From: Lysobacterales bacterium
GTDB taxonomy: Bacteria; Pseudomonadota; Gammaproteobacteria; Xanthomonadales; Marinicellaceae
Direction of reading: 5' to 3'
DNA length: 64,000 bases
Assembly: GCA_027057345.1 (NCBI GenBank)
Contig: JALUIX010000058.1
Coordinates: 10,564 to 74,563, forward strand
A program made the translations under genes and the position numbers. Positions 1-59,646 of the stretch are shown one piece after another (positions within the stretch are counted from its first letter, which is position 1; each line of letters begins with the position of its first letter). A model generated the notes under the pieces. That model searched no databases. It was not told the origin of the DNA and saw nothing but the letters and a program-made list of their open reading frames with translations.

Positions 1-1320
1 GGCAGTGAAAGCCTGATCTGGTTCAATGAGCGCTGGCCCCAGTACCTGGAAAAATATCACCCAACGGCCTTTTTACAGTGGCCCATTAGCACCGGCTGGC
101 AGCTGCAAAAGGGATACGCCTGCCTGAAGCAGCCTATTCACGCCACCCTGGCACGACGATTGGCGCAGGTGGTGGCACAGTGGCAGCGCGTCAAACATCT
201 GATCACCGCTGTGGCCGATGAATACCGCCAGCAACACCTGAAACCCGGCAGCGATATTGACCTGCTCGGGAGCGTGCAACAGGCCTCGCATTATCGACCC
301 GAAAACCTGCAGATTGGTCCCTGTGATCCCAAAAATACCTGTGGCGTGCACAGTCAGCTGGAACCCAGCCGGGCCTTGCTGGCCCTGTTTCCCAATCACC
401 TGTTGCTGGCCGACCAGCTCAACCTGGGCACCATTCGCCTGTGCTACGACGACGTGGGGTGGGAAGACCGCGAAGCCGGCCCAACGCATTTGAGCAATCC
501 GGCCGTGGCCAATTACTATGGCCACCTGGCCTTGAGTCTGAAAGGCTTTTATAACGACAAACTGGTGTTTGCCCGCCGCATCCAGTCGCTGCAAAAGTAC
601 CACTACCTGTTTGGTCGCAACGATGACAAGGTGTTGCAATTGAGCTGCCCTTTGCCCATTCTCGGCGAGCAGATTGTCACCCAACTACCTGAAGGCACGC
701 ATGGCTTGTTGCCCAATCGCCTCACGTTTCTGACCGCGGCCCGCGCCAATGCCGATGCCATTGTGAAGCATAACTGGACCGACGGAGAAGAGTGGCGTGA
801 CCGGCTGGCAGATGATTTACGGGTCAAAGTTCTGGCCAGCAACTCATTGGATGACGTCAGGTTGCTGGTGGAAGAAAAATTCATCGAACACACCAGTGCG
901 GTGCAGAAAACCCTTTATGGCTTGCTGCTGGAACAACAGCAAGCGCGCAGCGAAACTCAACAAGCCTTGCTTGACGCGGCCAGAAAGTATCACCTGTATC
1001 GGCAACTGGTACAGGCCATGGCCAGCGTGTTTATCACCGACAAACTCCTGTTCGACCCCGCTGTGCATGGCATTTTCTATGGTAGCGAACGCCTGCCGGA
1101 TAGAGCCATGCTGGCGGGTTTCTATCGCCAGCAAATTGCCATCCGCGAAGCCAACGCACGCTTTGAACGCTATCAGGAAAAGGCCGTGCAAACCTGGCTG
1201 AAACAGCCGCAGGATGAGGCTGGTGAAAACGAAAGGAAGGCTTTCAGGGCACTGGACCCGGTGTTACTGAAACTGCTGGAGCAGAAAAACCGCGCCAGCA
1301 ACCCTTTAGGGAAGCTCTGA
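1..1320 (+). CDS. hypothetical protein, C-terminal 439 aa (5' end lies left of the window)
   Basis: Frame 1 has no stop from base 1, so the ORF listed from 160 enters from the window edge. No family motif recognised. The final codons GKL+TGA are supplied by MITE copy A. Confidence 0.55.
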   Translation, partial: GSESLIWFNERWPQYLEKYHPTAFLQWPISTGWQLQKGYACLKQPIHATLARRLAQVVAQWQRVKHLITAVADEYRQQHLKPGSDIDLLGSVQQASHYRPENLQIGPCDPKNTCGVHSQLEPSRALLALFPNHLLLADQLNLGTIRLCYDDVGWEDREAGPTHLSNPAVANYYGHLALSLKGFYNDKLVFARRIQSLQKYHYLFGRNDDKVLQLSCPLPILGEQIVTQLPEGTHGLLPNRLTFLTAARANADAIVKHNWTDGEEWRDRLADDLRVKVLASNSLDDVRLLVEEKFIEHTSAVQKTLYGLLLEQQQARSETQQALLDAARKYHLYRQLVQAMASVFITDKLLFDPAVHGIFYGSERLPDRAMLAGFYRQQIAIREANARFERYQEKAVQTWLKQPQDEAGENERKAFRALDPVLLKLLEQKNRASNPLGKL

Positions 1321-1470
1321 TTGAATCGTGACACGGCATCTTGCGGCTTAAAATCGTCCATTTCTGCGTTGCAAACCTTCACAATAGCCCTGCTATTGCG
1401 TGCGGTTTGCACCTTGAACTGAACAATTTTACACTCCAATCTGCTCGCGCCAGATTCAATCAGAGCTTCC
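1310..1470 (+). mobile_element. MITE copy A (subfamily 1, full length, 161 bp)
   Basis: Terminal inverted repeats GGAAGCTCTGATTGAATC ... GATTCAATCAGAGCTTCC. Flanking 4-mers TTAG / TTGG. Near-identical to the copies at 4129, 15023, 16753, 24612, 52426 and 53891. Strand is orientation relative to my arbitrary consensus. Confidence 0.85.
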
Positions 1471-1543
1471 TTGGCTGATGACTCCGGCAAGCCCTGAGAA
1501 CGATTGCCCGACTGAGAAAAACTGTGTAAAGCTCAGGTCTTTT

Positions 1544-2200
1544 CTAAGGAGCCTCGGTAGAAGTTCTGCCCTCGCCAGAAAAATGGCCGTGCTGCAGGAA
1601 GTGCACTACTTCCCGTTGCACTTCGTGGTTTTTCAATAACCCCAGGTGATTGGTGTTGACGGTGATGTGGTGCTGGAGCCAGTCAACCTGTGTTTCTTCG
1701 AGCCCCACCGTGCCGTCATTGGGGCCGGAAAAGCGTTTGACCAACTTACCGATGCCCCACGGCCAAATGCCGGCAATCATACCCGCATCGCGCGCAGGCC
1801 GCTGCGTGGCAGCACCCGTGGTCAAGGGCTCGGTGGCATGACCCAGCAGCCATTTGTGCACTCCCAGCTTTTGCAGCCGCTGTGCCACCTGCGAGCCGCG
1901 TATGGGTGAGCCCAACATCACCAGCCGACCGGGTTTGCGAATGTCCTTGAGCGCCCGCAGGCTCAGTGTGCCACCCATGCTATGCGCCACCAGGTGCACC
2001 ACGTCTTCCGGTCGGGAATTTACAAAAGCGGCCAGTTGCCGAACCACGCTGTCCAGGTCACGGCGCACCGTCGGGTAGCCAAAGACATAAACCCGGTAAC
2101 CGGCCTGTTTCAAGGCCTTGGCCAGTGCCTGCATGGTCCACGGCCGCATCCACAAGCCATGCACCAGCACCACCGCTTCTGATGCCGGTTTTTCAGCCAT
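1544..2200 (-). CDS. alpha/beta-fold hydrolase (lipase/esterase-like)
   Basis: VVLVHGLWM oxyanion region and AHSMGG nucleophile elbow. Start moved to MAEKP (ATG at 2200), which overlaps the aspS stop by 8 nt. Confidence 0.75.
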
Positions 2201-4001
2201 TGGCGTCGCCTTCGTTCTGGTTCGGCTGCTCTTCCTCTTCCGGCAGCACCGCCTGTACATGCACTTCGGCCAGCTGCTGGGCCGGAATCGGTGAGGGCGC
2301 TTCTGTCAGCGGACAGCTGGCGCTGGCGGTTTTGGGAAAAGCAATCACTTCGCGAATGGAATCTACGCCGCACATGAGGGTGGCCAGGCGATCCAGACCA
2401 AAGGCAATGCCGCCGTGTGGCGGTGCACCGTATTCGAGGGCTTCCAGCAAAAAGCCGAATTTCTGCTCGGCTTCCTCAGGCGTAATGCCCAGCAAGTCAA
2501 ACACCGCGCGCTGCATGGCCGGGTTGTGGATACGAATGGAACCGCCGCCCAGTTCCACGCCGTTCATGACCATGTCATAGCCCTTGGACAAGGCCGCTTG
2601 CGGATTGGCACGCAGGCTTTCCACATCCCCGGTCGGTGCGGTGAATGGGTGGTGCAAGGCGTCCCAGCGTTTTTCGTCCTGGTTGTATTCAAACATGGGG
2701 AAATCCACAACCCACAACGGTTTCCACTGGCCTTCCAGCAAGTCCAGGTCTTCGCCCAGCTTGAGGCGCAGGGCGCCCATGTACTGGCTCACCGAATCGG
2801 CATCGCCGGCGCCAAAGAAAATCAGATCGCCATTCTCGGCTCCAGTGGCTTCAAGAATGGCCGTCAGGGCGGCTTCATCCAGAAACTTGACAATGGGGGA
2901 CTGCAAGCCGTCGCGACCCTGAGCCTTGTCATTGACCTTGATCCAGGCCAGGCCGCGGGCACCGTAACGGGCCACAAACGGGGCGTAATCGTCTATCTGT
3001 TTGCGGGTAAAACGCTCGCCACCTTTTGGCACCTTCAAAGCCACTACACGGCCATTGGGATCGGCCGCAGGCATGGCAAACACCTTGAATTCACTGTCCT
3101 TGACCGCATCGGCAATATCCACCAGTTCCAGCGGGTTGCGCAGGTCGGGTTTGTCTGAGCCGTAGCGGCGCATGGCTTCAGCCCAGGTCATGCGCGGGAA
3201 TGGGTTTGGCAAGTCCACATCCAGCACGGTTTTGAAAGTGTGACGGATGAGGTTTTCGGCCATTTCCAGCACGTCTTCCTGATCCACAAAGGCCATCTCG
3301 ATGTCCAGCTGGGTAAATTCCGGCTGGCGGTCGGCGCGCAGGTCTTCGTCGCGAAAACAGCGGGCAATCTGGTAATAGCGGTCCATGCCGGACATCATCA
3401 GCAGCTGCTTGAACAGTTGCGGGGATTGCGGCAAGGCATAGAACTTGCCTGGCTGGACGCGTGCCGGCACCAGAAAATCGCGCGCGCCTTCGGGCGTGGC
3501 CTTGGTGAGTACCGGCGTTTCAATGTCGAGAAAATCGCGCTCATCCAGGTGGTTGCGCAGTGCCCGTGTCAAGCGGGAACGCAGGCGAATGTTGTGCTGC
3601 ATCTGCGGGCGGCGTAAATCCAGGTAACGGTGTTTAAGGCGAATGGCTTCACCGGCTTCTTCGTCCAGCATAAACGGCAAGGGTTTGGACGGGTTGAGCA
3701 CTTCATAGTCGTCCACCACCACTTCGATGGCGCCGGTGCCTAACCGCTCGTTAACCTGCCCCTCGGGCCGGGGCCGGACGGTGCCACGCACACGCAGGCA
3801 GTATTCGTACCGGGCCTTGTCGGCAATGGCAAAGGCTGTTTCATTATCCGGCTCGACCACCACCTGCACAATGCCGCTGTGGTCGCGCAGGTCGATAAAA
3901 ATCACCCCGCCATGATCCCGGCGCTTGTCCACCCAGCCGCATAATTCAACCTGTTGGCCGAGTCTGGTTTCGTCTACCTGTCCGCATAAATCGCTGCGCA
4001 T
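2193..4001 (-). CDS. aspS: aspartate--tRNA ligase
   Basis: OB-fold N-terminus [19 protein letters not shown]; class II motifs [18 protein letters not shown] and GGGSIRIH. Start set at MRSDLCGQV (ATG 4001) rather than the longer ORF. Confidence 0.95.
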
Positions 4002-4128
4002 GAGTCTGGTTCCTGATATTGCGTTGGAAAACCGCACATGATACCGCCAATGGCCCCGTTTTTACAGGCCACAAGGCGGTTTTACGTGGTTTTTCAGCCT
4101 CTGCTGGCGCTGTGGGAGTGGCCTTTGA

Positions 4129-4287
4129 GGAAGCGCTGATTGAATCTGATGCGAGCAGATTGGAGTGTAAAATTGCTCAGTTCAAGGCGCAAACCGCACG
4201 CAATAGCAAGCTATTGTGAAGGTTTGCAACGCAGAAATGGACGATTTTACGCCGCAAGATGCCGTGTCACGATTCGATCAGGCTTCC
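4129..4287 (-). mobile_element. MITE copy B (subfamily 1, 159 bp)
   Basis: Same termini and core as copy A in inverted orientation. Flanks TTGA / TTAA. One-base deletion in the right-hand terminal repeat. Confidence 0.85.
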
Positions 4288-4769
4288 TTAAGAATAGTGA
4301 CGAAATTGCAGGGTTTGTGCGCAGCATCCAGTTGTTCAGCCAGAATCCGGGTCCAGGCCGTGCGGCAGGCGCCAGTGGAGCCCGGCAAGCAGAAAATCAG
4401 GGTGTTGTTGGCCAGCCCGCCCAAGGCCCGCGACTGAATGGTGGAAGTGCCAATTTCTTCGTAGGACAACTGACGGAACAACTCACCAAAACCTTCCACC
4501 TGCTTGTCCAGCAAGGGTTGAACGGCTTCGGGGGTCGAGTCCCGCCCGGAAAAACCAGTGCCGCCGGTGAGCAGCACCACGTCGGTGTTTTCATCGGCAA
4601 TGGCATCACTGACGAGTTTGCGAATCTGGTAAATGTCATCCTTGACAATATCATGGGCCAACACGCGATGGCCGGCGGCCCCGGCGGCTTCGCGCAAATA
4701 GGCGCCGGAGGTGTCGGTTTCCGGTGTGCGGGTGTCGCTGACTGTGAGCACGCGAATATTCAGGCTCAT
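4278..4769 (-). CDS. moaB: molybdenum cofactor biosynthesis protein B (MogA/MoaB family)
   Basis: LTVSDTR and LLTGGTGFSGRD motifs, 163 aa. The last codons (KEA) plus TGA lie inside MITE copy B. Confidence 0.8.
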   Translation of the reverse strand: MSLNIRVLTVSDTRTPETDTSGAYLREAAGAAGHRVLAHDIVKDDIYQIRKLVSDAIADENTDVVLLTGGTGFSGRDSTPEAVQPLLDKQVEGFGELFRQLSYEEIGTSTIQSRALGGLANNTLIFCLPGSTGACRTAWTRILAEQLDAAHKPCNFVTILKEA

Positions 4770-4793
4770 GCGAAAATCTCCAGGCTGGGCCGG

Positions 4794-5081
4794 TCAGTCG
4801 CCGGAAATGTAGTCCGGGCCTTTGCCGGCGGTTTTCTCGTACACGCCCTTGCCCACCTTGCGGTACTGGGTAAAGCCGTGTTTTTCCAGGTGACTCTGGC
4901 TATTCAGGCGCGCGCTGCCAGCGGCCACATTGGCCGCCGTGATGACCTTGCGCAGCGGCGCCTGGCAGCGGGGGCAGGCAATCAATGGCGCATCGGCCAT
5001 TTTCTGCATCACCTCAAAGCCCCGGGCGCACTGGTCGCACCCGGGGTGAGCGGCAAGCACCTGATAACGGTAAATGGGCAT
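4794..5081 (-). CDS. FmdB-family zinc-ribbon protein
   Basis: N-terminus MPIYRYQ with paired CxxC motifs (CDQC ... CPRC), 95 aa. Confidence 0.75.
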   Translation of the reverse strand: MPIYRYQVLAAHPGCDQCARGFEVMQKMADAPLIACPRCQAPLRKVITAANVAAGSARLNSQSHLEKHGFTQYRKVGKGVYEKTAGKGPDYISGD

Positions 5082-5086
5082 AGAGG

Positions 5087-6835
5087 TTAGTGGATTCCGT
5101 GCATTTTCTTCTTCAAGAATGGGGTCAGGGCCAACATAATCAAGCCCGCGGCCACTGGCAGCACGGTAAAAATCAGGAAGAAAGAACTCAAGCCATACTG
5201 GGCCGAAATGGTATCAATCAGGCTACCAGTCACGCCGGCCAGCTTGTTGGCCGCGGCATTTGATAGAAACCAGATGCCAAACATCAGGCCAACCAGTCGC
5301 GATGGCGACAATTTACTCACGTAGGACAGCCCCACCGGTGACAACGACAGTTCCCCCATGGTGTGAAACCAGTAGGCGATGACCAGAAACCAGAGGCTGA
5401 CCGAAGCAGTGGCCGCGCCCTTGGGAATGGTGGATGCGCCATAAGCCAGCACCGCAAAACCAGCCCCGAGCAAAAACAGGCCCAGAGCAAACTTAACCGG
5501 CGCCGAGGGGTTAAACCGGCTTTCCCAGATACGCGAAAATAAGGGCGCAAAGGCGATAATAAAGAACGAATTGAGAATCCCGAACCAGGAGGCAGCCACT
5601 TCCACCTCGCCGGCTATTTTGGCCTTCACCACGGCTTCAATCAGGTTGTCAAACTTGGGAATATCGGCATCTTCGATAATGCGGAACTTGTCTTCATCCA
5701 GCTTCAGCAGGTGCAGTTTGTCACCGGGTTTCAAGTCCGGATTACTGACCCGCACCTTGGTCACCACCTCGGTGTTATCAGCCTCATAGCTCACCTGGTA
5801 GGCCGTGGAGGTCAGCTGGTTGTAGACCATCCACAGGGCTATGATCCAGATCAGGGCAAAAGCCCCGGCCAGAATCAGGTTACTGATCGGAATGTAGCGG
5901 AAGGTGGACTTGAACAGCAGAAACAGCACGTAGGTGATGATCGCGATGGGCCCGAGAGTCAAGGCGGTGTTCACCCACACAAACCAGCTGGCCGCCTCAC
6001 CGGTCAGGACGCGTTGGGTGTAATCCTTGGCGAAGATGGTCATGGACCCGCCCGCCTGCTCAAAGGCCATCCAGAAGAAAATGGTAAAAAAGGCCAGCAC
6101 ACCAATCACTATCAGGCGGTCCCGCACCACGGTGGGGTTTTCTTCTTCCACTTCGGGGTCTTCGGGCTTGTCCACTTCGGCGAGGGCCGAGGGTTTGGCG
6201 CCAATGTCACCAAACATTTTCTGGGCAAAAATAAACTGCATCATACCCAGAAACATGAAAATGCCCGCCAGGCCAAAACCATAATGCCAACCCACGGTTT
6301 CGCCAATGTAGCCACACAGCAAAATGCCCAGAAAAGCACCGGCATTGATACCCATGTAAAAGATGGTGTAAGCGCCGTCCTTGCGATCACTGCCTTTGGA
6401 ATACAGGCCGCCGACGATGGAAGAAATATTGGGCTTGAACAGGCCGTTACCGGAAATCAGCAAGCCCAGCCCGGTGTAAAAGAAAAAGGGCGTGTCCATG
6501 GCCATGGAAGCGTGTCCCAGGGTCATCAACAAGGCGCCGATGATCACCGCCAGACGAAAGCCCAGCAGCTTGTCGGCCAGATAGCCGCCCAGAATCGGCG
6601 TCAGGTAAACCAGCCCGGTGTAGGTGCCATACAGGCTCAGGGCTTCCTCACGCGGCCAGCCCCAGCCATTGGCGGACAGGTCACTGACCAGAAACAGCAC
6701 CAGCAAGGCGCGCATGCCGTAATAACTGAAACGTTCCCACATTTCGGTAAAGAACAGAATAAACAACCCGGCCGGGTGATTCATCACTTCTACCGGCGGA
6801 ATGCCATGGCGGGACATGGTGGCACTTTGATTCAT
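5087..6835 (-). CDS. POT/PTR2-family proton-dependent oligopeptide transporter
   Basis: PTR2 signature FTEMWERFSYYGMRALLVLFL and multiple TM helices. Carries a ~70-aa hydrophilic insertion (YEADNTEVVTKVRV...KAKIAGEVE). Confidence 0.9.
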   Translation of the reverse strand: MNQSATMSRHGIPPVEVMNHPAGLFILFFTEMWERFSYYGMRALLVLFLVSDLSANGWGWPREEALSLYGTYTGLVYLTPILGGYLADKLLGFRLAVIIGALLMTLGHASMAMDTPFFFYTGLGLLISGNGLFKPNISSIVGGLYSKGSDRKDGAYTIFYMGINAGAFLGILLCGYIGETVGWHYGFGLAGIFMFLGMMQFIFAQKMFGDIGAKPSALAEVDKPEDPEVEEENPTVVRDRLIVIGVLAFFTIFFWMAFEQAGGSMTIFAKDYTQRVLTGEAASWFVWVNTALTLGPIAIITYVLFLLFKSTFRYIPISNLILAGAFALIWIIALWMVYNQLTSTAYQVSYEADNTEVVTKVRVSNPDLKPGDKLHLLKLDEDKFRIIEDADIPKFDNLIEAVVKAKIAGEVEVAASWFGILNSFFIIAFAPLFSRIWESRFNPSAPVKFALGLFLLGAGFAVLAYGASTIPKGAATASVSLWFLVIAYWFHTMGELSLSPVGLSYVSKLSPSRLVGLMFGIWFLSNAAANKLAGVTGSLIDTISAQYGLSSFFLIFTVLPVAAGLIMLALTPFLKKKMHGIH

Positions 6836-7090
6836 TGGTTTAACCCTCGCTACTGGTGGCGTTTAACAACAGAAAAAAAGCAAATCTGAATTTTTCTCTC
6901 ACTTAATCAGGGAAGGCACGGACTCGGTTTATGGTCTCAATCCTCACACCTGATCGGAAAAAAGGCGCTCAAGGGCCGGAAAAACTTTGGCCTGACGCGC
7001 AAAGCGTTTTATCATAGCACAAGCCCGAAAACCGCCAGCCATGGCGCCTGGCCCTGATGCCAGACAACTGAACCTTTGCAGGAAACCACC

Positions 7091-9421: not shown

Positions 9422-9462
9422 CCATCACTCCCCTGCTATCATTCCATCATTCAAGGAAACCC

Positions 9463-10146: not shown

Positions 10147-10246
10147 TTGTGCCAGGATGACCGGGCGTGAATCCTGCATGGACTCACCAGGTCAGTCACA
10201 AAAAAGTGCTGACCCACACTTTGGCTTGTCCCAACAGGAAGACTGG

Positions 10247-10738: not shown

Positions 10739-10862
10739 GGACACCTCACAATCAACGGTTATCACACATCAATCAGATTATCTTGCCAGGACGGGGTCAA
10801 CCGGGGTTTTTCCGGGATAAATGGCAAAATGCAAGCAATTCTGTTTCCCAAACAGGCCGGTG

Positions 10863-11327: not shown

Positions 11328-11392
11328 TGTTCTGTCCTCCAGTGTGAGTGGTGAGTATGCGCCTGAACCCCTCGTGAGTTCAAAGCGTGGGT

Positions 11393-15022: not shown

Positions 15023-15183
15023 GGAAGCTCTGATTGAATCTGGCGCGAGCAGATTGTAATGAAAAATTGTTCAGTTCAAGGCGCAAATCGCACGCAATAG
15101 CAAGGCTATTGTGAAGGTTTGCAACGCAGAAATGGACGATTTTACGCTGCAAGATGCCGTGTCACGATTCGATCAGAGCTTCC
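15023..15183 (-). mobile_element. MITE copy C (subfamily 1, 161 bp)
   Basis: Perfect 4-bp direct duplication TTAG (15019-15022 and 15184-15187). Lies 58 bp upstream of the plsB ATG. Confidence 0.9.
15053..15079 (-). promoter_or_regulatory. candidate outward-facing sigma70 promoter inside MITE copy C, directed at plsB
   Basis: Minus strand reads TTGAAC-N15-TACAAT, about 90 nt upstream of the plsB ATG. Motif match only. Confidence 0.3.
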
Positions 15184-15191
15184 TTAGAGAC

Positions 15192-15224
15192 AAAAAAGCC
15201 GGAAAGGTTTATGCGCTTTCCGGC
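15192..15224 (-). terminator. rho-independent terminator of the lipoprotein gene
   Basis: Minus strand reads GCCGGAAAG-9 nt loop-CTTTCCGGC followed by TTTTTTG. Confidence 0.75.
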
Positions 15225-15246
15225 CGGTAAAGGTGTTTTTGTTTTC

Positions 15247-16752: not shown

Positions 16753-16913
16753 GGAGCCTCTGATCGAATCGTGACATGGCATCTTGCGGCGTCAAATCGT
16801 CCATTTCTGCGTTGCAAACCTTCCCAATAGCCTTGCTATTGCGTGCGGCTTGCGCCTTGAACTGAACAATTTTCCACGACAATCTGCTCGCGCCAGATTC
16901 AATCAGAGGTTCC
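16753..16913 (+). mobile_element. MITE copy D (subfamily 1, 161 bp)
   Basis: Perfect duplication TTAA (16749-16752 and 16914-16917). The right-hand TTA is the hslU stop codon (TAA on the minus strand). Confidence 0.9.
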
Positions 16914-18248
16914 TTAAAGAATGTACCGGGACAGGTCTTCGTCTTCCACCAGCTGGTTCAAAACCTTGTCCACGTAGGCACGATCAATCACGTACTCCTG
17001 CCCGGCGTTGTCTGCGCCTTCAAAGGAAATGGCCTCCAGCAGGCGTTCCATAACGGTGTGCAACCGGCGTGCGCCGATGTTTTCGGTGCGTTCGTTGACC
17101 GACCATGAATATTCGGCAATGCGCTGGATGCCGTCTTCGGTAAAGCGCAACTGGACGCCTTCGGTACCGATCAAGGCCTGGTACTGCTCGGTCAGTGAGG
17201 CTTCCGGCTCGGTCAGAATGCGCTTGAAGTCTTCCGCAGTAAGGGCGCGCAACTCCACCCGGATGGGCAGGCGGCCCTGCAGTTCCGGAATCAGGTCGGA
17301 GGGCTTGGCCAGGTGAAAGGCGCCAGAAGCAATAAACAGCATGTGATCGGTCTTGACCGGGCCGTGACGGGTGCTGACGGTGGAGCCTTCAATCAGTGGC
17401 AACAGATCACGTTGCACGCCTTCACGCGACACGTCTCCGCCACCGGCTTCGGCGCGCTTGCAGACCTTGTCCAGTTCATCAATAAAAACTATGCCACTTT
17501 GCTCGGCCAGTTCAATGGCCTGTTGCTTGATTTCTTCTTCGTTAACCAGCTTGTTGGCTTCTTCCTCGATCAGTTGCGGGCGGGCGGCGGCGATTTTCAG
17601 TTTTTTGCGCTGTTTTTTGGCCCCGGCCAGGTTTTCAAACAGGCCTTGCAGCTGGGTGGTCATTTCTTCCATGCCTGGCGGCGCCATGATTTCCACGCCC
17701 ATGGACAGCGACACATCCAGTTCAATTTCCTTTTCGTCCAGTTCGCCGGCGCGCAGTTTCTGGCGGAATTTTTCCCGCGTGCGGCTGGTGTTTTCGTCCT
17801 CAGCGACCACCTCGCCAGGAAAAACCGGCGCCGGGCGCGGCAGCAATGCATCCAGTATCCGCTCCTCGGCGGCTTTTTCGGCCTGTGCCCGGACCTTGGC
17901 CGTGGCCTTTTCGCGTGTGAGCTTGATGGCACTGTCCACCAGGTCGCGAATGATGGATTCCACGTCTTTGCCAACATAGCCCACTTCGGTGAATTTGGTC
18001 GCTTCCACCTTGATGAACGGGGCTTCTGCCAAACTGGCCAGACGGCGCGCAATTTCGGTTTTGCCCACGCCGGTGGGGCCAATCATGAGGATGTTCTTGG
18101 GGGTGATTTCCCGCCGCAGTTCTTCGGGCAGTTGCATGCGCCGCCAACGGTTACGAAGCGCGATGGCCACGGCGCGTTTGGCATCGGCCTGGCCGATGAT
18201 GTGACGGTCCAGTTCGTGAACAATTTCACGTGGGGTCATGTTGGACAT
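16914..18248 (-). CDS. hslU: ATP-dependent protease ATPase subunit HslU
   Basis: [17 protein letters not shown]; P-loop [15 protein letters not shown]; C-terminal DLSRYIL. Confidence 0.97.
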
Positions 18249-18886: not shown

Positions 18887-19045
18887 GGAAGCTCTGATTG
18901 AATCTTAACGAAGCAGGTTATGCCTGAAGTGGTCGAGAACAAGGCGAAGTTTGTAGCCAATAGCAAGCTATTGGCAAGGACTTCAACGCAGTTATCGGAC
19001 ATTTCAGGTGTGAGAAGCAAGTTCATGATTCGATTAGAGCTTTCC
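18887..19045 (-). mobile_element. MITE copy H (subfamily 2, 159 bp)
   Basis: Same terminal repeats (GGAAGCTCTGATTGAATC ... GATTCGATTAGAGCTTTCC) and the same apical CAATAGC..GCTATTG hairpin as subfamily 1. The arms between them differ. Left flank TTAG; right flank not duplicated. Confidence 0.75.
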
Positions 19046-24611: not shown

Positions 24612-24772
24612 GGAACCTCTGATTGAGTCTGGCGCGAGCAGATTGTTGTGAAAAATTGTTCAGTTCAAGGCGCAAACCGCACGTAATAGCCAGGCTATTG
24701 CGAAGGTTTGCAACACAGAAATGGACGATTTTACGCCGCAAGATGCCGTGTCACGATTCAATCAGAGGTTCC
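24612..24772 (-). mobile_element. MITE copy E (subfamily 1, 161 bp)
   Basis: Termini GGAACCTCTGATTGAGTC ... GATTCAATCAGAGGTTCC; the ends carry matching AC/GT variants. Flanks TCAG / TTAC are not a clean duplication. Confidence 0.85.
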
Positions 24773-34697: not shown

Positions 34698-34764
34698 GGA
34701 AGCCCTGATCGAATCATGAACTCGCCTCTCATACCTGAAATGTCCAGGTTCGATCAGCGCTTCC
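34698..34764 (+). mobile_element. MITE copy I (subfamily 2, internally deleted, 67 bp)
   Basis: GGAAGCCCTGATCGAATCATGAACTCGCCTCTCATACCTGAAATGTCC matches one arm of copy H, then joins directly to the other terminal repeat (GGTTCGATCAGCGCTTCC). Flanks CTAG / CTGG. Confidence 0.7.
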
Positions 34765-41052: not shown

Positions 41053-41065
41053 ACTATTTGGCGTG

Positions 41066-42899: not shown

Positions 42900-42901
42900 G
42901 T

Positions 42902-47276: not shown

Positions 47277-47331
47277 GCTCGGGTTGCCTGTGCTGTGTCG
47301 CGCTTTGGTTTTCTTGGATCAGAGTAGCTAA

Positions 47332-47816: not shown

Positions 47817-47822
47817 TGGCTG

Positions 47823-48728: not shown

Positions 48729-48741
48729 TTTTCTGTTCCTT

Positions 48742-51222
<2,481 letters not shown>

Positions 51223-51256
51223 TCAATTCAGGCGTATATTGCCGGTAAGTAACTGC

Positions 51257-52345: not shown

Positions 52346-52425
52346 GAACCTTCTCAGCGAGTTTCAGAGTAAACGGAGGCCGCCGGATTAGCTCAAAATT
52401 GACTGACTAATCCAGTTCTATCTAA

Positions 52426-52585
52426 GGAGCTTCTGATTGAATCTGATGCGAGCAGATTGTCGTGAAAAATCGTTCAGTTCAAGGCGCAAACCGCACGCAA
52501 TAACCAGCTATTGTGAAGGTTTGCAACGCAGAAATGGACGATTTTACGCCGCAAGATGCCGTGTCACGATTCAATCAGAGGCTCC
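52426..52585 (-). mobile_element. MITE copy F (subfamily 1, 160 bp)
   Basis: Perfect duplication CTAA (52422-52425 and 52586-52589). The right-hand CTA is the dnaN stop codon (TAG on the minus strand). Lies between dnaN and recF. Confidence 0.9.
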
Positions 52586-53692
52586 CTAAAGGCGCAAAGG
52601 CATAATGATCTGGCGACAGCGATTGTTATCCGGGTCTCTCACCACGCAGCTGCTGGTGGCGTCCTTGAAACTGAACAACACATTTTCACTGTCCAGGCTG
52701 TTAATCGCATCCAGCAGGTAATTGACGTTAAACCCGGTACCCAGCTCAGTGATATCGGTTTCCACCGCCAGTTCTTCTTCCGATTCTTCCTGTTCAGGGT
52801 TGTATCCGATCAAAACAAGTTTATTAGGAGAAATTTTAAACTTAACGCCCTTGTATTGTTCATTGGACAGGATCGAAGCACGCTGGAACGCAGACCGGGC
52901 CTGCTCCTTGTTAACCTGCATGGTGAGATCGATGTCCAGGGGAATCACCAGGTTGTAGTCGGGAAAACGACCATCGATGAGCTTGGAGGTGAAGGCGGTT
53001 TGGCCCAGGGTGGCGCTGATATGGTTGCGGCCAATGTTGATCTGGATAAATTCCGGCGCGTCCTTGAGTAGTTTCTGTAACTCCAGCACCCCTTTGCGGG
53101 GAATAATGATCTGGTGTTTGACGCTTTCGCTATGCGAAAAGGGCGCCTCAGCCAGGGCCAGTCGATGACCGTCGGTGGCCACTGTGCGAATGGTGTTTTC
53201 ATCCAGCTCCAGCAGCAGCCCGTTGAGAAAATACCGCACGTCCTGGCTGGCCATGGCAAAAGCGGTTTGCTGTAACAGGCGGATCAGGTCATCAGTCTTT
53301 ACCTGGAAGCTGTCCACGGCCTGAACCCCTTCAATCAAGGGGTATTCATCAGCGGGCAACGAAGCGAGGCTGAATCGGCTTCTGTTGGCGCTGACGGTAA
53401 CCTTGGGGCTGTTTTCAGCCTGGGTGATGGAAATCAGCGAACCATCGGGCAACGCCTTGCAAATATCAAACATTTTACGGGCCGGTATGGTGGTTTCACC
53501 AGGCTGGTGAACTTCCACCGGCAAGCCACTGCGCATTTCCACTTCCAGGTCGCTACCGGTCACGGTCAGGTGGTCGTTTTCGGCTTTAAAGCAAAAGTTT
53601 CCCAGAATGGGCAGTGTCTGTTTCTTTTCGATCACCCCGATGGTTTGTCCCAGGGCGTGGAGTAAGGTTTCTCGCTGTGCTGTTATTTTCAT
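52586..53692 (-). CDS. dnaN: DNA polymerase III beta sliding clamp
   Basis: 368 aa; MKITAQRETLLHAL ... C-terminal IIMPLRL; position after dnaA. Confidence 0.97.
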   Translation of the reverse strand: MKITAQRETLLHALGQTIGVIEKKQTLPILGNFCFKAENDHLTVTGSDLEVEMRSGLPVEVHQPGETTIPARKMFDICKALPDGSLISITQAENSPKVTVSANRSRFSLASLPADEYPLIEGVQAVDSFQVKTDDLIRLLQQTAFAMASQDVRYFLNGLLLELDENTIRTVATDGHRLALAEAPFSHSESVKHQIIIPRKGVLELQKLLKDAPEFIQINIGRNHISATLGQTAFTSKLIDGRFPDYNLVIPLDIDLTMQVNKEQARSAFQRASILSNEQYKGVKFKISPNKLVLIGYNPEQEESEEELAVETDITELGTGFNVNYLLDAINSLDSENVLFSFKDATSSCVVRDPDNNRCRQIIMPLRL

Positions 53693-53733
53693 TATCTTTA
53701 TAAAAACCAGTAGTTATAGGCTTGGAACAAGTC

Positions 53734-53856
53734 CGTGGATAAGCGCTTAAGTGATTGATTTTAAGGCAAAAGAAGCGCCGAGTGCAAAAGGATTAAGCTG
53801 TGGATAAGCTGTGTTTAAGTTTAGCGGCTGTTTTTATCCCCGACTTATCCACAGCT
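53734..53856. promoter_or_regulatory. DnaA-box cluster in the dnaA-dnaN spacer
   Basis: Two perfect TTATCCACA boxes in inverted orientation (53799-53807 as TGTGGATAA; 53845-53853), each inside a perfect 13-bp inverted repeat AGCTGTGGATAAG / CTTATCCACAGCT. Also an 8/9 box (53734-53742) and a 7/9 box (53834-53842). An AT-rich stretch abuts the dnaN ATG. Confidence 0.7.
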
Positions 53857-53890
53857 TGCCCACAGGTATTGAGCCATGTTGTTCATCTAG

Positions 53891-54052
53891 GGAAGCTCTG
53901 GTCGAATCGTGACACGGCGCCTTGCGGCGTAAAAGCGCCCATTTCTGCGTTGCAAACCTTCACAATAGCTTGTGTTATTGCGTGCGGCTTGCGCCTTGAA
54001 CTGAACGATTTTTCACGACAATCTGCTCGCGCCAAATTCAATCAGAGCTTCC
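53891..54052 (+). mobile_element. MITE copy G (subfamily 1, 162 bp)
   Basis: Perfect duplication CTAG (53887-53890 and 54053-54056). Lies 18 bp after the dnaA stop, between dnaA and the DnaA-box cluster. Confidence 0.9.
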
Positions 54053-54070
54053 CTAGTGACAATACAAGGC

Positions 54071-55420
54071 TTATTCCGTGAGCAGATTGATGAGTTTTTG
54101 CCTGTCTTCGGCGAAATCGGGTTCCTCGTTAAACAACTGTTGCATTTTGCGGCAGGCATGCAGCACCGTGGTGTGATCGCGGCCGCCGAAGGCCTCGCCA
54201 ATTTCCGGCAGGCTTTTGTCCGTGAGTTCCTTGGCCAGGTACATGGCCAACTGGCGGGGCCGTGCAATGGAGCGGGTGCGTTTTTTGGAAAGCAGGTCAG
54301 AAAGACGAATGCCGTAGTAATTGGCCGTGGCTTTCTGAATGTTTTCAATGGTGACCTGACGGTGGTGAATGGTGAATAGTTCACGCAGTGTCTGCTTGGT
54401 AAATTCAATGTCGATGGTGGCGCCGGTAAAGCGTGCATTGGCCCAAAGGGTGTTGAGCGCGCCTTCCAGCTCGCGAATATTGGAGCGCAATTTTTTGGCA
54501 ATGTAAAAAGCCACCTGGTCGGAAATGTTGATGCCCTGCTGGCGTGCCTTCTGTAACAGGATGGCCACTCGGGTTTCGAAATCCGGCGGGTCAATGGCCA
54601 CGCTCAGGCCCCAGCCCAGCCGGGATTTAAGGCGGTTCTTCAAGCCATTGACCTCTTTCGGGTAGCGGTCACAGGTGATGATGACCCGTTGCTTGAGTTC
54701 AAGCAGGGAGTTAAAGGTGTGAAAGAACTCTTCCTGGGTGCGCTCCTTGCCGGCAAAAAACTGGATGTCGTCAATCAACAGGGCATCCACGGAACGAAAC
54801 TGCTCCTTCAACTGGTCCATTTCCTGATTTTTAATGGCACGAATGGTGGCGTTTACAAACTGTTCGGAATGCGTGTAGTAAACAATGGCGTTGGGCTGCA
54901 GTTCCAGAATGCGGTTGCCAATGGCGTGCAGCAGGTGGGTTTTGCCCAGCCCGGTGGATCCATACAGCAGCAAGGGATTGTATTCCACCTGGGGTTCTTC
55001 GGCGATCTGCAGGGCTGAATGCTTGGCAATGGTGTTGGACTGACCTTCAACAAAGTTATCAAAGGTAAAGCGTGGGTCGATGTTGGATTGCAAGCGCGCC
55101 TGCGGGCGTTCCGGCAAGGCACTGGGCCGTTTGCGTTTTGGCAGGCTGCCATCGGCACTCAAATGCAGCGTGACCTCACAGGGTTGCTGGCGGATTTCAT
55201 TGCAGGCGGCGCGAATCAGGGGCAGGTAATTATCACGCACCCGCTGTGCCACGATTTCGTTGGGCGCAAAAAGATCCAGCCCGTTGTCTGTTTCCGTGAA
55301 ACGCAGGGGTTTGAGAAAAAGGGCGATATCACTGCTGTCGATTTCCACCTGAAGGCGATTGACGCATTTATCCCAAAGGGTTGGTTGTTCCTTGTTGCTG
55401 GTGTCTGTTTTGGCATTCAT
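54071..55420 (-). CDS. dnaA: chromosomal replication initiator protein DnaA
   Basis: AAA+ Walker A GSTGLGKTHLLHAIGN, LIDDIQFFAGKERTQEEFFHTFN, and C-terminal DNA-binding region RPRQLAMYLAKELT ... DHTTVLHA. Start at MNAKTD (ATG 55420). Confidence 0.98.
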   Translation of the reverse strand: MNAKTDTSNKEQPTLWDKCVNRLQVEIDSSDIALFLKPLRFTETDNGLDLFAPNEIVAQRVRDNYLPLIRAACNEIRQQPCEVTLHLSADGSLPKRKRPSALPERPQARLQSNIDPRFTFDNFVEGQSNTIAKHSALQIAEEPQVEYNPLLLYGSTGLGKTHLLHAIGNRILELQPNAIVYYTHSEQFVNATIRAIKNQEMDQLKEQFRSVDALLIDDIQFFAGKERTQEEFFHTFNSLLELKQRVIITCDRYPKEVNGLKNRLKSRLGWGLSVAIDPPDFETRVAILLQKARQQGINISDQVAFYIAKKLRSNIRELEGALNTLWANARFTGATIDIEFTKQTLRELFTIHHRQVTIENIQKATANYYGIRLSDLLSKKRTRSIARPRQLAMYLAKELTDKSLPEIGEAFGGRDHTTVLHACRKMQQLFNEEPDFAEDRQKLINLLTE

Positions 55421-55763
55421 AGTGTTTTTTCTTGCGGTGTTTGAAGGTCCGTTCCAACACGTGTGACCCATGGAGGCAGATTTTTCGAAGTGGCGGCTAA
55501 ACCAGCTTGTGTCATTCAGGCGAATTTCAGGCGGCAAGGTTCAGGACAGAGAAGAGAAAACCGGCCGGCCAACGCGGCCTCAAAAACCGCTTTGCCCTTG
55601 AAAATACACGCAAAAACGGGTATGCTTCACCACCTTTTGAGGAAGTGCTGTGCCTGCCATCTGGCCCGTTCTGATGTTTCGGGCAAGAAAACCAGCGGCC
55701 CGGCGGTTCCTTTTTTTGTTGTAAGCAGCCCTTACCACAGCGAATTCAGACGGAAAGAATACC

Positions 55764-55904
55764 ATGAAAAGAACTTATCAACCCAGCAAAATCAAGCGCG
55801 CCAGAACTCACGGTTTTCGTGCCCGCATGAAAACCGCCGGCGGCCGTGCCGTGATTAATGCACGCCGTGCCAAAGGCCGTAAAAGACTGACTGTTTCCGG
55901 TTAA
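55764..55904 (+). CDS. rpmH: 50S ribosomal protein L34
   Basis: Not in the ORF track (46 aa). My translation is [52 protein letters not shown] upstream. Confidence 0.95.
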
Positions 55905-55932
55905 ATCCAGCCAGTAACCGAAACCACACAAG

Positions 55933-55974
55933 GCAGCCGGCGGGAACAAACCAACCCGGTGGCTGCTTTGTTTT
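55933..55974 (+). terminator. intrinsic terminator/attenuator between rpmH and rnpA
   Basis: GCAGCCGGCGGG-10 nt loop-CCCGGTGGCTGC (12-bp stem with one mismatch and one G-T pair), followed by TTTGTTTT. Confidence 0.6.
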
Positions 55975-56032
55975 CATCCTGGCCGGGAAAAACCGGTGCC
56001 CTGTTCTTTCGCAACACCGGCCACAACGTTCG

Positions 56033-56467
56033 ATGACCCCCACCGGAAAAAACACGTCACAGCCAAGTCCTGAACCAACGCCTGTAGGCGCGACGTTCCC
56101 CAAGACTGCCCGCTTGCTGGATAAAAAACAGTTTGACCAGGTTTTTTCTCAAGCCCTGAAAGTCTCCGACAGGCATTTCCTGATTCTGATGCACCAGCGA
56201 GCCAAGACTCCCGGCGAAAAAATCGCCGTGCCACGCCTGGGGCTGATTGTCTCCAAAAAAGTGGACAAACGGGCCGTGGGGCGAAATCGGATCAAACGCC
56301 AGGTACGGGAAAGTTTTCGCCAGCAACAGCAGCTGCCTGGGTGTGATTTCGTCGTGATCGGCCGGCCGGCAGCCAGCCAGGCGACCAATACCGAATTGCG
56401 CCAGAGCCTCGATCGCTTGTGGCAACAGGCCGGTCTCAAATTCAACCAACGCAGAAATTCATCATGA
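56033..56467 (+). CDS. rnpA: ribonuclease P protein component
   Basis: Basic RNR-like block KKVDKRAVGRNRIKRQVRESFR. Position rpmH-rnpA-yidC. The exact start is uncertain. Confidence 0.88.
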   Translation: MTPTGKNTSQPSPEPTPVGATFPKTARLLDKKQFDQVFSQALKVSDRHFLILMHQRAKTPGEKIAVPRLGLIVSKKVDKRAVGRNRIKRQVRESFRQQQQLPGCDFVVIGRPAASQATNTELRQSLDRLWQQAGLKFNQRRNSS

Positions 56468-58170
56468 ATAACACCCGCCCTCTTCTTTTTGCCGCCCTGT
56501 TTTTTCTCGGCTTTGCCCTGTACCAGAACTGGCAACAGGATTATGGCAGCCAGCCGACAGCAGGCAGTGACAGCTCACAAGCCGCTGAGAAAACAACCTC
56601 AGCCAGCGAAAGTGTGCCATCAATGGATGAGGCACCGCAGGCCAAAACCGGACAGCAAAAGGAAGAAAAACCGGAAAAGTCCCCACTGTTGGCAGACGGA
56701 GAAAAAACGCCAGAAACTTCTCGTGGCAGGCTGGTGGAAATCAATAACGGCGTATTGAAACTGAAAATTGACACGCAGGGCGCGGGCATCAAATACGCTG
56801 AATTGCTGGACTACCCGGTGGAAAAAGGCGCCGACACCAACGTGGTGTTGATGAATGATGTGAAAGGCGATCGCTATTACGCCCAAAGTGGCCTGGTGTC
56901 CAATGCACCGGCCCCTGATCACCGGCAGGTATTTGAAACCCCCCATGAGAGCGTGGATGCCACCGGCACAGCCGTCGATATTCCTTTTAGCTGGGAAAAA
57001 GACGGGGTCAAAGTCACCAAAACCTATCACGTTGAGCCCAATTCTTACGTGATCTCCGTCAAACAGACGGTGGAAAACCAGAGCGGCCAGCCCTGGACGG
57101 GATACGCATATCAACAATTGCAGCGCAATAACCCCTGGGAAGGCAAGAAAAGCGGCTTTACTGACCCCGGCCGCATGTCGCTGAAAGGCGCGTCTTTTTA
57201 CGACCAGGAAGAAGGCTACACCAAAGTGCCTTTCAAAGACATGAAGGAAAACGCCGAAGAGGGTGAGCCGCCGGTGGAAGCCACCGTCAATAAGGGCTGG
57301 ATTGCCATGGTGCAACACTATTTCCTGTCGTCTATTATCGACGACAAGGAACCATTGAAAGTGCAAACGCGTTACCTGCCGGATTCACCAACCCCTTATC
57401 TGATCCGCTTCCTGACCCCGACCCGCACCGTGCAACCTGGCCAACGCCAGGATTTTGAAGCCACATTGTTTGTGGGGCCAAAACTGCAGAAAGTATTGCC
57501 CACGGTGGCCGAAGGCCTGGAACTGACCGTGGACTACGGGATTTTCACCGTGATTGCCAAGCCGCTGTTTTCGGTCTTGTCCTTCATTTATTCCTTTGTG
57601 CTCAACTGGGGCTGGTCAATCGTCATTCTGACCATTCTGATCAAGCTGGCCTTTTTCAAACTGACCGAATCCCAGTACAAATCCATGGCCCGCATGCGCA
57701 AGCTGCAGCCACGCATTCAAACCCTGAAAGAGCGCCACAAGGGCAATCGTCAGCGTTTCAACGAAGAAATGATGAAGCTGTACCAGAAAGAAAATGTCAA
57801 TCCGCTGGGCGGCTGTCTGCCCATGTTGGTGCAGATCCCGGTCTTTATTGCCCTGTACTGGGTTCTGCTGGAAAGTGTGGAACTGCGTCAGGCGCCGTTT
57901 ATCCTGTGGTTGCAGGATCTGTCCAGCCCCGATCCCTATTATATTCTGCCGGCCATCAATGCCGCGGCCATGTACATGACACAGCGCCTCTCACCCACGC
58001 CCGGCATGGACCCTGTGCAACAGAAAGTGATGAAGTTCATGCCACTGGGCTTCTCCATCATGTTTGCCTTCTTCCAGTCTGGCCTGGTGCTTTACTGGGC
58101 GGTCAACAGCAGCTTGTCGCTGTTGCAGCAATGGGTGATCACCAAGCGCATTGAAAAACAGGCCAACTGA
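56464..58170 (+). CDS. yidC: membrane protein insertase YidC
   Basis: N-terminal TM MNNTRPLLFAALFFLGFALYQNW, a large periplasmic domain, and the conserved C-terminal core GWSIVILTILIKLAFFKL ... NPLGGCLPMLVQIPVFIALY. ATGA overlap with rnpA. Confidence 0.96.
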   Translation: MNNTRPLLFAALFFLGFALYQNWQQDYGSQPTAGSDSSQAAEKTTSASESVPSMDEAPQAKTGQQKEEKPEKSPLLADGEKTPETSRGRLVEINNGVLKLKIDTQGAGIKYAELLDYPVEKGADTNVVLMNDVKGDRYYAQSGLVSNAPAPDHRQVFETPHESVDATGTAVDIPFSWEKDGVKVTKTYHVEPNSYVISVKQTVENQSGQPWTGYAYQQLQRNNPWEGKKSGFTDPGRMSLKGASFYDQEEGYTKVPFKDMKENAEEGEPPVEATVNKGWIAMVQHYFLSSIIDDKEPLKVQTRYLPDSPTPYLIRFLTPTRTVQPGQRQDFEATLFVGPKLQKVLPTVAEGLELTVDYGIFTVIAKPLFSVLSFIYSFVLNWGWSIVILTILIKLAFFKLTESQYKSMARMRKLQPRIQTLKERHKGNRQRFNEEMMKLYQKENVNPLGGCLPMLVQIPVFIALYWVLLESVELRQAPFILWLQDLSSPDPYYILPAINAAAMYMTQRLSPTPGMDPVQQKVMKFMPLGFSIMFAFFQSGLVLYWAVNSSLSLLQQWVITKRIEKQAN

Positions 58171-58207
58171 ATCCACTGAGCCTGAACGCCCGGCGCAATC
58201 ACCCAAT

Positions 58208-59611
58208 ATGAACGACACCACAGACACCATCGCCGCCATCGCCACCGCGCCAGGGGTGGGCGGCGTGGGTATTGTGCGCGTGTCCGGGCCGCAGGCCGCG
58301 CAAATAGCCAGGGCCATTACCGGCACGGTGCCGCCGCCCCGGCAGGCGATCTTCAGGCCGTTTCGCTGGCCAGCAGCCACGCAATCCGAAGACGAAAACA
58401 GGCCATCGCAGCCTGCTGCCGGTGAGAAAATCGACAGCGGCGTGGTGCTTTATTTTCCGAATCCGGCCTCGTTTACCGGCGAGGACGTGGTGGAATTCCA
58501 GGGCCACGGCGGGCCGGTAGTGATGAACCTCCTGTTGCAGGCGGTGCTGGCTGCCGGAGCGCGACTGGCGCAGCCGGGCGAGTTTTCCCAGCGGGCTTTT
58601 CTTAACGGCAAGATTGACTTGGTGCAGGCCGAGGCCATTGCCGATTTGATCAGCAGCAGCAGCGAACAGGCTGCACTGGCCGCACAAAGGGCCTTGTCCG
58701 GGGAATTTTCCGCCCAGATAGAGGGCTTGTTACAGCAATTGATCCGCCTGCGCGTGTGGGTGGAGGCGGCCATCGACTTTGCCGAAGAGGAAATAGACTT
58801 TCTGGCCGATGAACAGCTGCAGGCCACCCTGGAAGACATCAATCAACGCATGCAGAACCTGTTACGCCAGACCACCGCCGGGGCCATGCTTAACCGCGGT
58901 TTTGTGCTGGCGCTGGCCGGCGTGCCCAATGCCGGCAAATCGTCGTTGTTAAACCGTCTTGCCCGCCAGGAAAGCGCCATTGTTTCGGCACAGGCCGGCA
59001 CCACTCGGGACGTGCTCAAGGAAACCATACAGATTCAGGGCATACCGACCACGGTGCTGGACACCGCCGGCTTGCATGACACCGAAAACCCGGTGGAACG
59101 TGAAGGCATTCGCCGTGCCCAGCGCGCCATGCGCGAAGCCGATCTGGTGCTGGTGGTGGTCGATGCCAGCCAGCCGCTGGACACGCAACAGCAGGCACTG
59201 GCGGATCTGCCGACGCACAGCCGCACCCTGTTTGTGATCAACAAGCTGGATCTGAACGCAAACACCGAACCTTTCAGGCAGTGGGCACAGTTGCTTCACT
59301 CCCCATGGGTGGAGATTTCAGCCACCGAAGGCACCGGGCTGGAAGCCCTGCAGGAGGCCATTGTGCAGGCCATCACCGGACACAAACAGCTGGAAACCAC
59401 CTACCTGGCCCGAACCCGTCACGTGCAGCAATTGCAAGAAACCGCCGAGCACCTGCGCATTGCCCGCCAGCAACTGGTGGAAAATCAGGCCGGTGAACTG
59501 GTAGCCGAAGAATTGCGCCTGGCGCAGCAGGCACTGAACGCCATCACCGGCGAATTCAGCAGCGATGATTTGCTGGGTGAGATTTTTTCGTCGTTTTGCA
59601 TCGGCAAGTAA
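58208..59611 (+). CDS. mnmE: tRNA uridine-5-carboxymethylaminomethyl(34) synthesis GTPase MnmE
   Basis: DTIAAIATAPGVGGVGIVRVSG, G1 motif GVPNAGKSSLLN and C-terminal FCIGK. Start at MNDTTD (ATG 58208). Confidence 0.96.
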   Translation: MNDTTDTIAAIATAPGVGGVGIVRVSGPQAAQIARAITGTVPPPRQAIFRPFRWPAATQSEDENRPSQPAAGEKIDSGVVLYFPNPASFTGEDVVEFQGHGGPVVMNLLLQAVLAAGARLAQPGEFSQRAFLNGKIDLVQAEAIADLISSSSEQAALAAQRALSGEFSAQIEGLLQQLIRLRVWVEAAIDFAEEEIDFLADEQLQATLEDINQRMQNLLRQTTAGAMLNRGFVLALAGVPNAGKSSLLNRLARQESAIVSAQAGTTRDVLKETIQIQGIPTTVLDTAGLHDTENPVEREGIRRAQRAMREADLVLVVVDASQPLDTQQQALADLPTHSRTLFVINKLDLNANTEPFRQWAQLLHSPWVEISATEGTGLEALQEAIVQAITGHKQLETTYLARTRHVQQLQETAEHLRIARQQLVENQAGELVAEELRLAQQALNAITGEFSSDDLLGEIFSSFCIGK

Positions 59612-59618
59612 GGCTTAG

Positions 59619-59646
59619 GGAGCCTCTGATTGAATCGTGACACGGC
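59619..59646 (+). mobile_element. MITE solo end (28-bp left-terminus fragment, copy J)
   Basis: GGAGCCTCTGATTGAATCGTGACACGGC is identical to the first 28 nt of copy F (reverse complement). Preceded by TTAG. The rest of the element is missing. Confidence 0.65.

Follow-up and report, generated by a model that had tools for sequence, protein, structure and literature searches.

Correia elements (NEMIS) of Neisseria are about 100 to 160 bp long and have terminal repeats. They occur in hundreds of intergenic copies, are often co-transcribed, and form long hairpins. No transposase is known for them. ERIC (IRU) and YPAL sequences are imperfect palindromes of 127 to 170 bp that lie in transcribed intergenic DNA, and an effect of their RNA hairpins on mRNA stability has been discussed. 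The Tourist and mPing elements of eukaryotes are miniature inverted-repeat transposable elements (MITEs). They share only their terminal repeats with a PIF/Harbinger element, which encodes a DDE transposase related to that of IS5 and has the target TWA. Here, we describe repeated elements of about 160 bp from a 64,000-nucleotide stretch of contig JALUIX010000058.1 (the window), the replication-origin region of an uncultured gammaproteobacterium. They are very probably non-autonomous MITEs of an IS5-group insertion sequence (IS) and comprise two sister families, A and B, and their decay products. They are a known kind of element, except for one conserved hairpin feature that is left without explanation.

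The ends of the window elements start with GGAA, and the elements are associated with a 4-bp YTAR duplication, as is IS5 of Escherichia coli (PMC5009759). An IS with matching ends was identified in other bacteria (copies L194, L103, L101, and L111). It resembles the IS5 group in its length of about 1.2 kb, in its single DDE transposase with DUF772 and DDE_Tnp_1 domains, and in its YTAR duplication. Unlike IS5, the window elements are about 160 bp long and have no transposase. Their terminal 18-mer, GGAAGCTCTGATTGAATC, agrees with the IS5 end for the first five bases and then differs. Correia elements are comparable in density to the window MITEs, but they duplicate TA, whereas the window MITEs have a 4-bp YTAR duplication and an identified matching IS. 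ERIC/IRU and YPAL sequences have no sequence relationship to the window elements. They are also largely fixed at orthologous sites, whereas the window copies are absent from close relatives. Tourist and mPing follow the same logic as the window MITEs. They differ in being eukaryotic, in their 3-bp duplication, and in their need for a second, Myb-like protein.

A search of the window for GGAAGCTCTGATTGAATC with up to 3 mismatches tolerated gave 18 matches, compared with 0.05 expected from shuffles. The matches form nine elements with terminal repeats at both ends and one solo end. A profile search of the window at maximum sensitivity found no copies beyond these ten. The inventory contains seven family A copies (159 to 162 bp), one family B copy (158 bp), a 67-bp element, and a 29-nt solo end (Table 1). 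The 67-bp element is an internally deleted copy of family B, since it matches B positions 111 to 158. The seven family A copies are 88 to 94% identical in pairwise comparison (mean, 91%), and copies 15023 and 16753 differ at 12 of 161 positions. The original prediction, which was made from the letters of the window, had placed ten related sequences here and had counted the same 12 differences. The coordinates held, and the count was exact. The prediction also called the copies unusually dense, which is too strong. The density is one copy per 6.4 kb in the window. Correia elements in Neisseria and repetitive extragenic palindromic (REP) sequences in E. coli reach a similar density, and ERIC sequences fall in the same range. 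The density is thus not exceptional.

The IS has the same ends as the MITEs. At some unpaired terminal-repeat matches in Halothiobacillus and JASBTJ01, ATGAAACAGACAAGTTTTGCC about 70 nt downstream opens an open reading frame (ORF). The ORF fragment matches NCBIfam NF033581 (IS5 family transposase) with 284 bits, against a cut-off of 140. In IS copies outside the window, the transposase also matches Pfam DUF772 and DDE_Tnp_1 above the gathering score. Full-length homologues contain 317 aa. One IS copy, L194, carries the MITE terminal repeat without mismatch at both ends, and the ends of L101, L103, L111, L193, and L195 have 0 to 3 mismatches to it. A transposase scan of metagenomes gave 80 loci of the wider clade. 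The metagenome copies with both ends found were 1.15 to 1.29 kb long, usually 1.16 to 1.19 kb. They start with GGA and usually have a YTAR duplication. The closest plasmid-borne transposases are IS5-family proteins from enterobacterial and other plasmids with only about 50% identity to that of the IS, and no named IS was among the plasmid matches.

The flanks of the elements agree with this partner. In the window, the flanking 4-mers form perfect pairs at four copies (15023, 16753, 52426, and 53891). They differ by one base at copies 1310, 4129, and 34698 and by two bases at copies 18887 and 24612. The four perfect pairs and the three with one mismatch are as first predicted. Fifty terminal-repeat-bounded elements from the window and the retrieved loci were compared. 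Perfect 4-bp direct repeats flank 25 of them, compared with about 0.2 by chance, and a further 15 are off by one base. Twenty of the 25 perfect duplications are YTAR (CTAA, TTAG, CTAG, or TTAA), which is the target-site duplication of IS5. The predicted IS5-type ends and YTAR targets were therefore borne out by the IS copies, by the NF033581 match, and by these duplications. Pairs such as CTAA/CTAA and TTAG/TTAG identify the flanks as direct repeats and rule out an extension of the palindrome.

The duplications also bear on a different origin. The repeats could be palindromes of the REP/BIME or ERIC/Correia type, unrelated to a DDE element and spread by a REP-associated tyrosine transposase (RAYT, IS200/IS605-like) or by another mechanism. 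The elements do resemble these in being long imperfect palindromes that are strictly intergenic and dense, with no transposase nearby. Minimal 27-nt palindromes of two fused ends in other genomes also fit this origin. However, RAYT-mobilised elements make no target duplication, and Correia and ERIC elements duplicate TA, whereas the window elements have 4-bp direct duplications, and a relative (L109) has only one copy of the 4-mer at its dnaN/recF site. The 18-bp ends are also identical to those of an IS5-family DDE element, and they read GGAAGC, with no GTAG-type REP head. We consider this origin highly improbable.

Every copy is intergenic. Orientation relative to the flanking genes is random, with 7 elements in co-directional sense, 8 antisense, 8 between convergent genes, and 9 between divergent genes. 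Of 37 elements of about 160 bp, 18 coincide with the end of a long ORF, which stops either within the duplicated YTAR or at the terminal-repeat TGA. Cases in the window include hslU, dnaN, and ORF 160-1320. The association arises because TAA or TAG is present on both strands of every YTAR. Together with the loss of insertions within genes, this would account for both the intergenic accumulation and the location on stop codons. ORF 160-1320 runs through the TTAG duplication into MITE 1310-1470 and ends at the TGA in the terminal repeat. When the 1310 MITE was removed in silico, this ORF gained a few C-terminal residues (…LADDSGKP*), so the insertion altered the end of that protein. Two of the three reading frames are closed by a stop in the terminal repeat. 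We found no paper that links MITE, IS5, and stop codon together.

The elements are absent from relatives. L109 is syntenic with the window and about 90% identical over 21 kb, and it has no copy. Its BLAST alignments stop exactly at the edges of two MITEs, those at dnaN/recF and dnaA/dnaN. At dnaN/recF, L109 has CCTTTAG directly followed by GTGGAACTGG, where the window has CCTTTAG, the MITE, and TTAGATAGAACTGG. This lone TTAG doubles as the dnaN stop codon. The dnaA/dnaN site of L109 contains one 4-mer, GCAG, in place of the CTAG, MITE, and CTAG of the window. The length is exact, and the sequence has diverged. In three further relatives (L104, L106, and L108), the intergenic gaps are smaller by the element plus 4 bp. 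The closer L109 was needed because the intergenic DNA of L104 (DnaN 94% identical) is too diverged for an empty-site comparison at base level.

A more distant relative, L191 (75 to 85% identical), has no element at the 15023, 16753, 18887, and 24612 sites. It contains a single 4-mer, CTGA, at the 15023 and 16753 sites. The 24612 junction is too diverged to read at base level. At the 18887 site, the gap is 96 bp in L191 and 270 bp in the window, and there is no MITE profile match; the emptiness of this site was judged from these two observations. Altogether, the relatives lack the element at 6 of 6 sites examined, and the intergenic lengths fit those of the window less the element and one 4-mer. 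The six examined insertions thus took place after the lineage separated from relatives with about 90% identity. Empty sites with a single YTAR had been proposed as a check. The absence of the element and the single TTAG at dnaN/recF agree with that proposal, and the other readable 4-mers differ from it in sequence. The spot in L109 that matches the solo end at 59619-59647 has unrelated sequence.

The empty sites also speak to the idea of an immobile repeat, one that serves as a conserved structured RNA gene or a cis-regulatory RNA at fixed loci. The strong covariation of the hairpin and its invariant loop, described below, are in keeping with an RNA. However, the repeat is absent from 6 of 6 orthologous sites in relatives at about 90% and 75 to 85% identity. 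Its orientation and genomic context are random, and target duplications flank the copies. Rfam 15 gave no match at gathering score in the window; the best permissive match had 19.5 bits against a gathering score of 40. No tRNA genes were found. A fixed RNA gene, which the original prediction had named as an alternative to a mobile element, is thus barely credible.

The copies in the window are best explained as MITEs. Like other bacterial MITEs, they have terminal inverted repeats, are short with no transposase ORF, occur as dispersed copies with a duplication of fixed length, and have empty sites and an autonomous element, the latter in other bacteria. Each copy carries two 18-bp terminal repeats identical to those of a 1.16- to 1.17-kb IS with a 317-aa DDE transposase, around a non-coding interior that is predicted to fold as one long imperfect hairpin. 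Transposase supplied in trans would bind both ends. The element would then be inserted at a YTAR, which would be duplicated on either side. Insertions inside genes would be lost, and copies would build up in intergenic DNA. About half of the copies lie on the stop codon of a neighbour, where the duplication would restore the stop or the TGA of the terminal repeat would give a new one. The window copies would have been inserted after the lineage parted from relatives that are about 90% identical in DNA. We infer that this genome has, or once had, a transposase of this clade and that this enzyme mobilised the window copies.

Several observations weigh against this account. A tblastn search for the cognate transposase gave no homologue in the window, as had been predicted, or in 22 loci of JALWKC01, a genome with many copies of both families. 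None of the IS-bearing assemblies retrieved falls in the clade of the window. Mobilisation in trans, the mechanism originally proposed, thus gains an IS with the same 18-bp ends in other bacteria and is probable here by extension, the transposase being absent from the searched window and lineage loci. Past the terminal repeat, the MITE interior resembles neither end of the more than 60 IS copies with ends found, which means that the family did not arise from any sampled IS by simple internal deletion. This mismatch is irrelevant to mobilisation, which needs only the ends. The target at dnaA/dnaN is not preserved in L109 (GCAG for CTAG), though the length is exact. Finally, the copies diverge from each other by 6 to 12%, yet all insertions examined postdate the split from relatives that are about 10% different. 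Several diverged source copies or fast decay would be required.

The interior of the elements contains a conserved motif. CAAGGCG lies 53 to 55 nt from one end (36 nt inside the terminal repeat) and is confined to one strand; nearly all elements between 99 and 315 bp long have it. It is common to at least five gammaproteobacterial groups among the elements sampled. At the mirror position, the opposite arm has CAACGCAG in the approximately 160-nt families A, B, C, and L076 and CAACGCCG in family D (L075). CAAGGCG faces CAACGCAG as an asymmetric internal loop, and this loop is invariant. The RNAalifold consensus of 15 representatives of five approximately 160-nt families contains 54 pairs, 26 of them with compensatory double changes. 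On this structure, 94.8% of the cells pair, a value that 0 of 500 shuffles reached; slid controls gave 28 to 44%.

The two strands differ in their folding. In families A, B, C, and L076, the fold of the motif strand is 15 to 30 kcal/mol more stable than that of its complement; family D (L075) shows no such advantage. The longer families have no strand asymmetry in folding. The consensus energy is -69.1 kcal/mol for the motif strand and -33.8 kcal/mol for the complement. The consensus structure contains 85 G.U cells and 18 A.C cells, with the A.C cells scattered at one or two per pair position, and such counts lean towards the strand that was folded. A count of arm against arm on the family consensus sequences gave a weak excess of G.U (4 to 7 G.U and 3 to 4 A.C). 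The asymmetry is therefore clear only in the folding energies and the consensus-structure counts. In most copies of all of the approximately 160-nt families, the two ends differ at position 13 of the terminal repeat (alignment columns 13 and 158). The end nearer CAAGGCG has T and the opposite one has C, which gives a G.U pair on the motif strand. The same difference occurs between the two ends of the IS copy L195.

CAAGGCG is absent at +55 of either end in more than 60 IS copies with ends found. At the offset of CAAGGCG, the left end of the IS has the ribosome-binding site of the transposase (TTAGGTG or CAGGTAC). An IS-derived origin of the motif was sought here. The ribosome-binding site shares the offset, yet its sequence is not conserved among IS copies. 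A polarity of the elements that follows transcription, as expected of a function at the RNA level, was rejected because orientation is random.

It is possible, and we propose it only tentatively, that the interior of these MITEs is a selected single-stranded hairpin module (RNA or single-stranded DNA) with CAAGGCG opposite CAACGCAG. This would add to the MITE explanation and not replace it. A protein of the host or of the transposon might bind the module, which might in turn raise the transposition of the element or act on neighbouring transcripts through their stability, processing, or termination. The fixed position of the motif on one strand across element lengths and groups, the compensated pairing around an invariant loop, the better folding of the motif strand, and the lack of the motif in the IS argue for such a module. 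A uniform function in host mRNA is disfavoured by the random orientation relative to flanking transcription (7/8/8/9). The missing asymmetry in the longer families and in L075, the small G.U excess in the arm-against-arm count, and the lack of a matching Rfam family also count against the module. Conversion between the palindrome arms could keep them paired without selection, and the motif could be a relic of the ribosome-binding site at the same offset in the IS left end. The MITE lineage may conceivably be old, spread across several gammaproteobacterial orders, and carry a selected hairpin module that is absent from the parent IS, but we regard this as unlikely.

Table 1. Coordinates of the repeat elements in the window and of related features in other loci. 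For the listed elements, the strand is the one that carries the CAAGG(C/T)G motif.
Feature	Locus	Positions	Strand	Flanking 4-mers (left/right)	Remarks
Family A MITE, 161 bp	Window	1310..1470	-	TTAG (1306-1309)/TTGG (1471-1474)	
Family A MITE, 159 bp	Window	4129..4287	+	TTGA/TTAA	1-nt deletion in right terminal repeat; adjoins aspS start region
Family A MITE, 161 bp	Window	15023..15183	+	TTAG/TTAG (perfect)	Upstream of plsB
Family A MITE, 161 bp	Window	16753..16913	-	TTAA/TTAA (perfect)	hslU stop codon in right copy (16914-16917)
Family B MITE, 158 bp	Window	18887..19044	+	TTAG/CCAG	Between xerC and hslV
Family A MITE, 161 bp	Window	24612..24772	+	TCAG/TTAC	Between convergent SPOR-domain gene and tsaD
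Family B derivative, 67 bp	Window	34698..34764	-	CTAG/CTGG	Both terminal repeats and B positions 111-158; just upstream of topA
Family A MITE, 160 bp	Window	52426..52585	+	CTAA/CTAA (perfect)	Between dnaN and recF; right copy contains dnaN stop (TAG, minus strand)
Family A MITE, 162 bp	Window	53891..54052	-	CTAG/CTAG (perfect)	Between dnaA and dnaN; 38 bp from nearest perfect DnaA box
Solo family A end	Window	59619..59647	.	TTAG before	Terminal repeat and 11 nt of the end without CAAGGCG; between convergent mnmE and TonB-receptor genes
IS copy, 1168 bp	L194			TTAA/TTAA	Both ends 18/18 identical to MITE terminal repeat
IS copy, 1168 bp	L103			TTAG/TTAG	
IS copy	L101			CTAA/CTAA	
IS copy	L111			TTAG/TTAG	
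27-nt palindrome	L018	2866-2892			
27-nt palindrome	L038	2237-2263			
27-nt palindrome	L057	3001-3027			
27-nt palindrome	L090	104-130			
27-nt palindrome	L096	7526-7552			
27-nt palindrome	L100	2700-2726			

In the window, dnaA, dnaN, recF, and gyrB are minus-strand genes, and rnpA, yidC, and mnmE are plus-strand genes. It also contains aspS, plsB, hslUV, xerC, birA, and topA. The origin-proximal core setting given in the original prediction is therefore correct, and the spacer between dnaA and dnaN (53693-54070) adds DnaA boxes to it. Two are perfect (53799-53807 on the minus strand and 53845-53853 on the plus strand), and one has a single mismatch (53734-53742). The box sequences are conserved in relatives. 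The spacer may be an origin or a dnaN control region. The metagenome-assembled genome (MAG) GCA_015494035.1 matches the window at 99.98% identity across 5.2 kb. The DnaN proteins of the nearest named relatives are 51 to 55% identical to that of the window. The 15023 copy lies directly behind a hairpin that resembles a terminator and includes a T run (CCGGAAAG…CTTTCCGGCTTTTTTG) at 15184-15230 of the window, read on the minus strand. This hairpin is conserved in L191 (12820-12865).

Relatives of the elements were sought in species-representative genomes with a degenerate terminal repeat, and the following occurrences are among the matches listed. Families A and B have many copies in the MAG JALWKC01 ("Lysobacterales bacterium"), all intergenic and in random orientation. 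Both families also occur in an uncultured "Sedimenticola" MAG. Diverged relatives of about 160 bp were found in JACKNK01, JBAUSV01, and a Sedimenticola MAG. Elements with the same repeat and lengths of 99, 176, 236, 263, 270 to 288, and 306 to 315 bp were found in Halothiobacillus, Thiomicrorhabdus, Hydrogenovibrio, Rhodanobacteraceae, and JAAFAL01. A full-text search of the literature for the terminal-repeat sequence found no paper.

Some arrangements in these genomes are more complex. At three JALWKC01 loci, an A copy and a B copy are exactly 4 bp apart (L036 4507-4828, L054 6103-6425, and L082 4699-5021), and the L036 pair is bounded by TTAG/TTAG. The L036 pair looks as if a 322-bp dimer had moved as a unit or as if the duplicated target beside a resident copy were preferred. 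A 1338-bp pair of terminal repeats in JALWKC01 (L016 700-2037) was considered as a full IS and rejected, because it consists of two family B MITEs around a cbpA/dnaJ-like gene. The inverted B copies around this complete gene resemble a composite transposon, and the outer flanks, CTAG and CTAA, do not match. Perfect or near-perfect palindromes of 27 nt, GGAAGCTCTGATTGAATCAGAGCTTCC, consist of two terminal repeats that overlap at their inner ends. They occur in unrelated genomes, including a Clostridia MAG, and may represent either the smallest products of deletion or a palindromic unit in its own right. Pairs of terminal repeats spanning 161, 161, and 57 bp were present in Oscillospiraceae and Eubacteriales MAGs (L071 4490-4650, L046 121-281, and L010 1096-1152). 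These contain no CAAGGCG; chance, binning contamination, or a distant family could explain them.

In an uncultured gammaproteobacterial lineage, the elements provide a clean, fully documented match between a MITE and its type of autonomous IS. The YTAR target steers insertions onto stop codons. The repeats also change gene ends, as in ORF 160-1320, which now terminates inside an element. They break short-read assemblies of this clade and are useful as strain markers, because close relatives differ in site occupancy. Core operons (dnaA-dnaN-recF and hslVU) tolerate recent insertions of 160-bp hairpins. The interest of the family rests mainly on this tolerance in the dnaA operon and on the conserved internal module. 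If the module reading is true, the interior of a bacterial MITE would be a functional single-stranded RNA or DNA structure and not leftover IS sequence. The module would then be a protein-binding site that promotes its own spread or a portable RNA hairpin that acts on host transcripts. If the conserved loop is functional, it would be a case of selection on the interior of a bacterial MITE.

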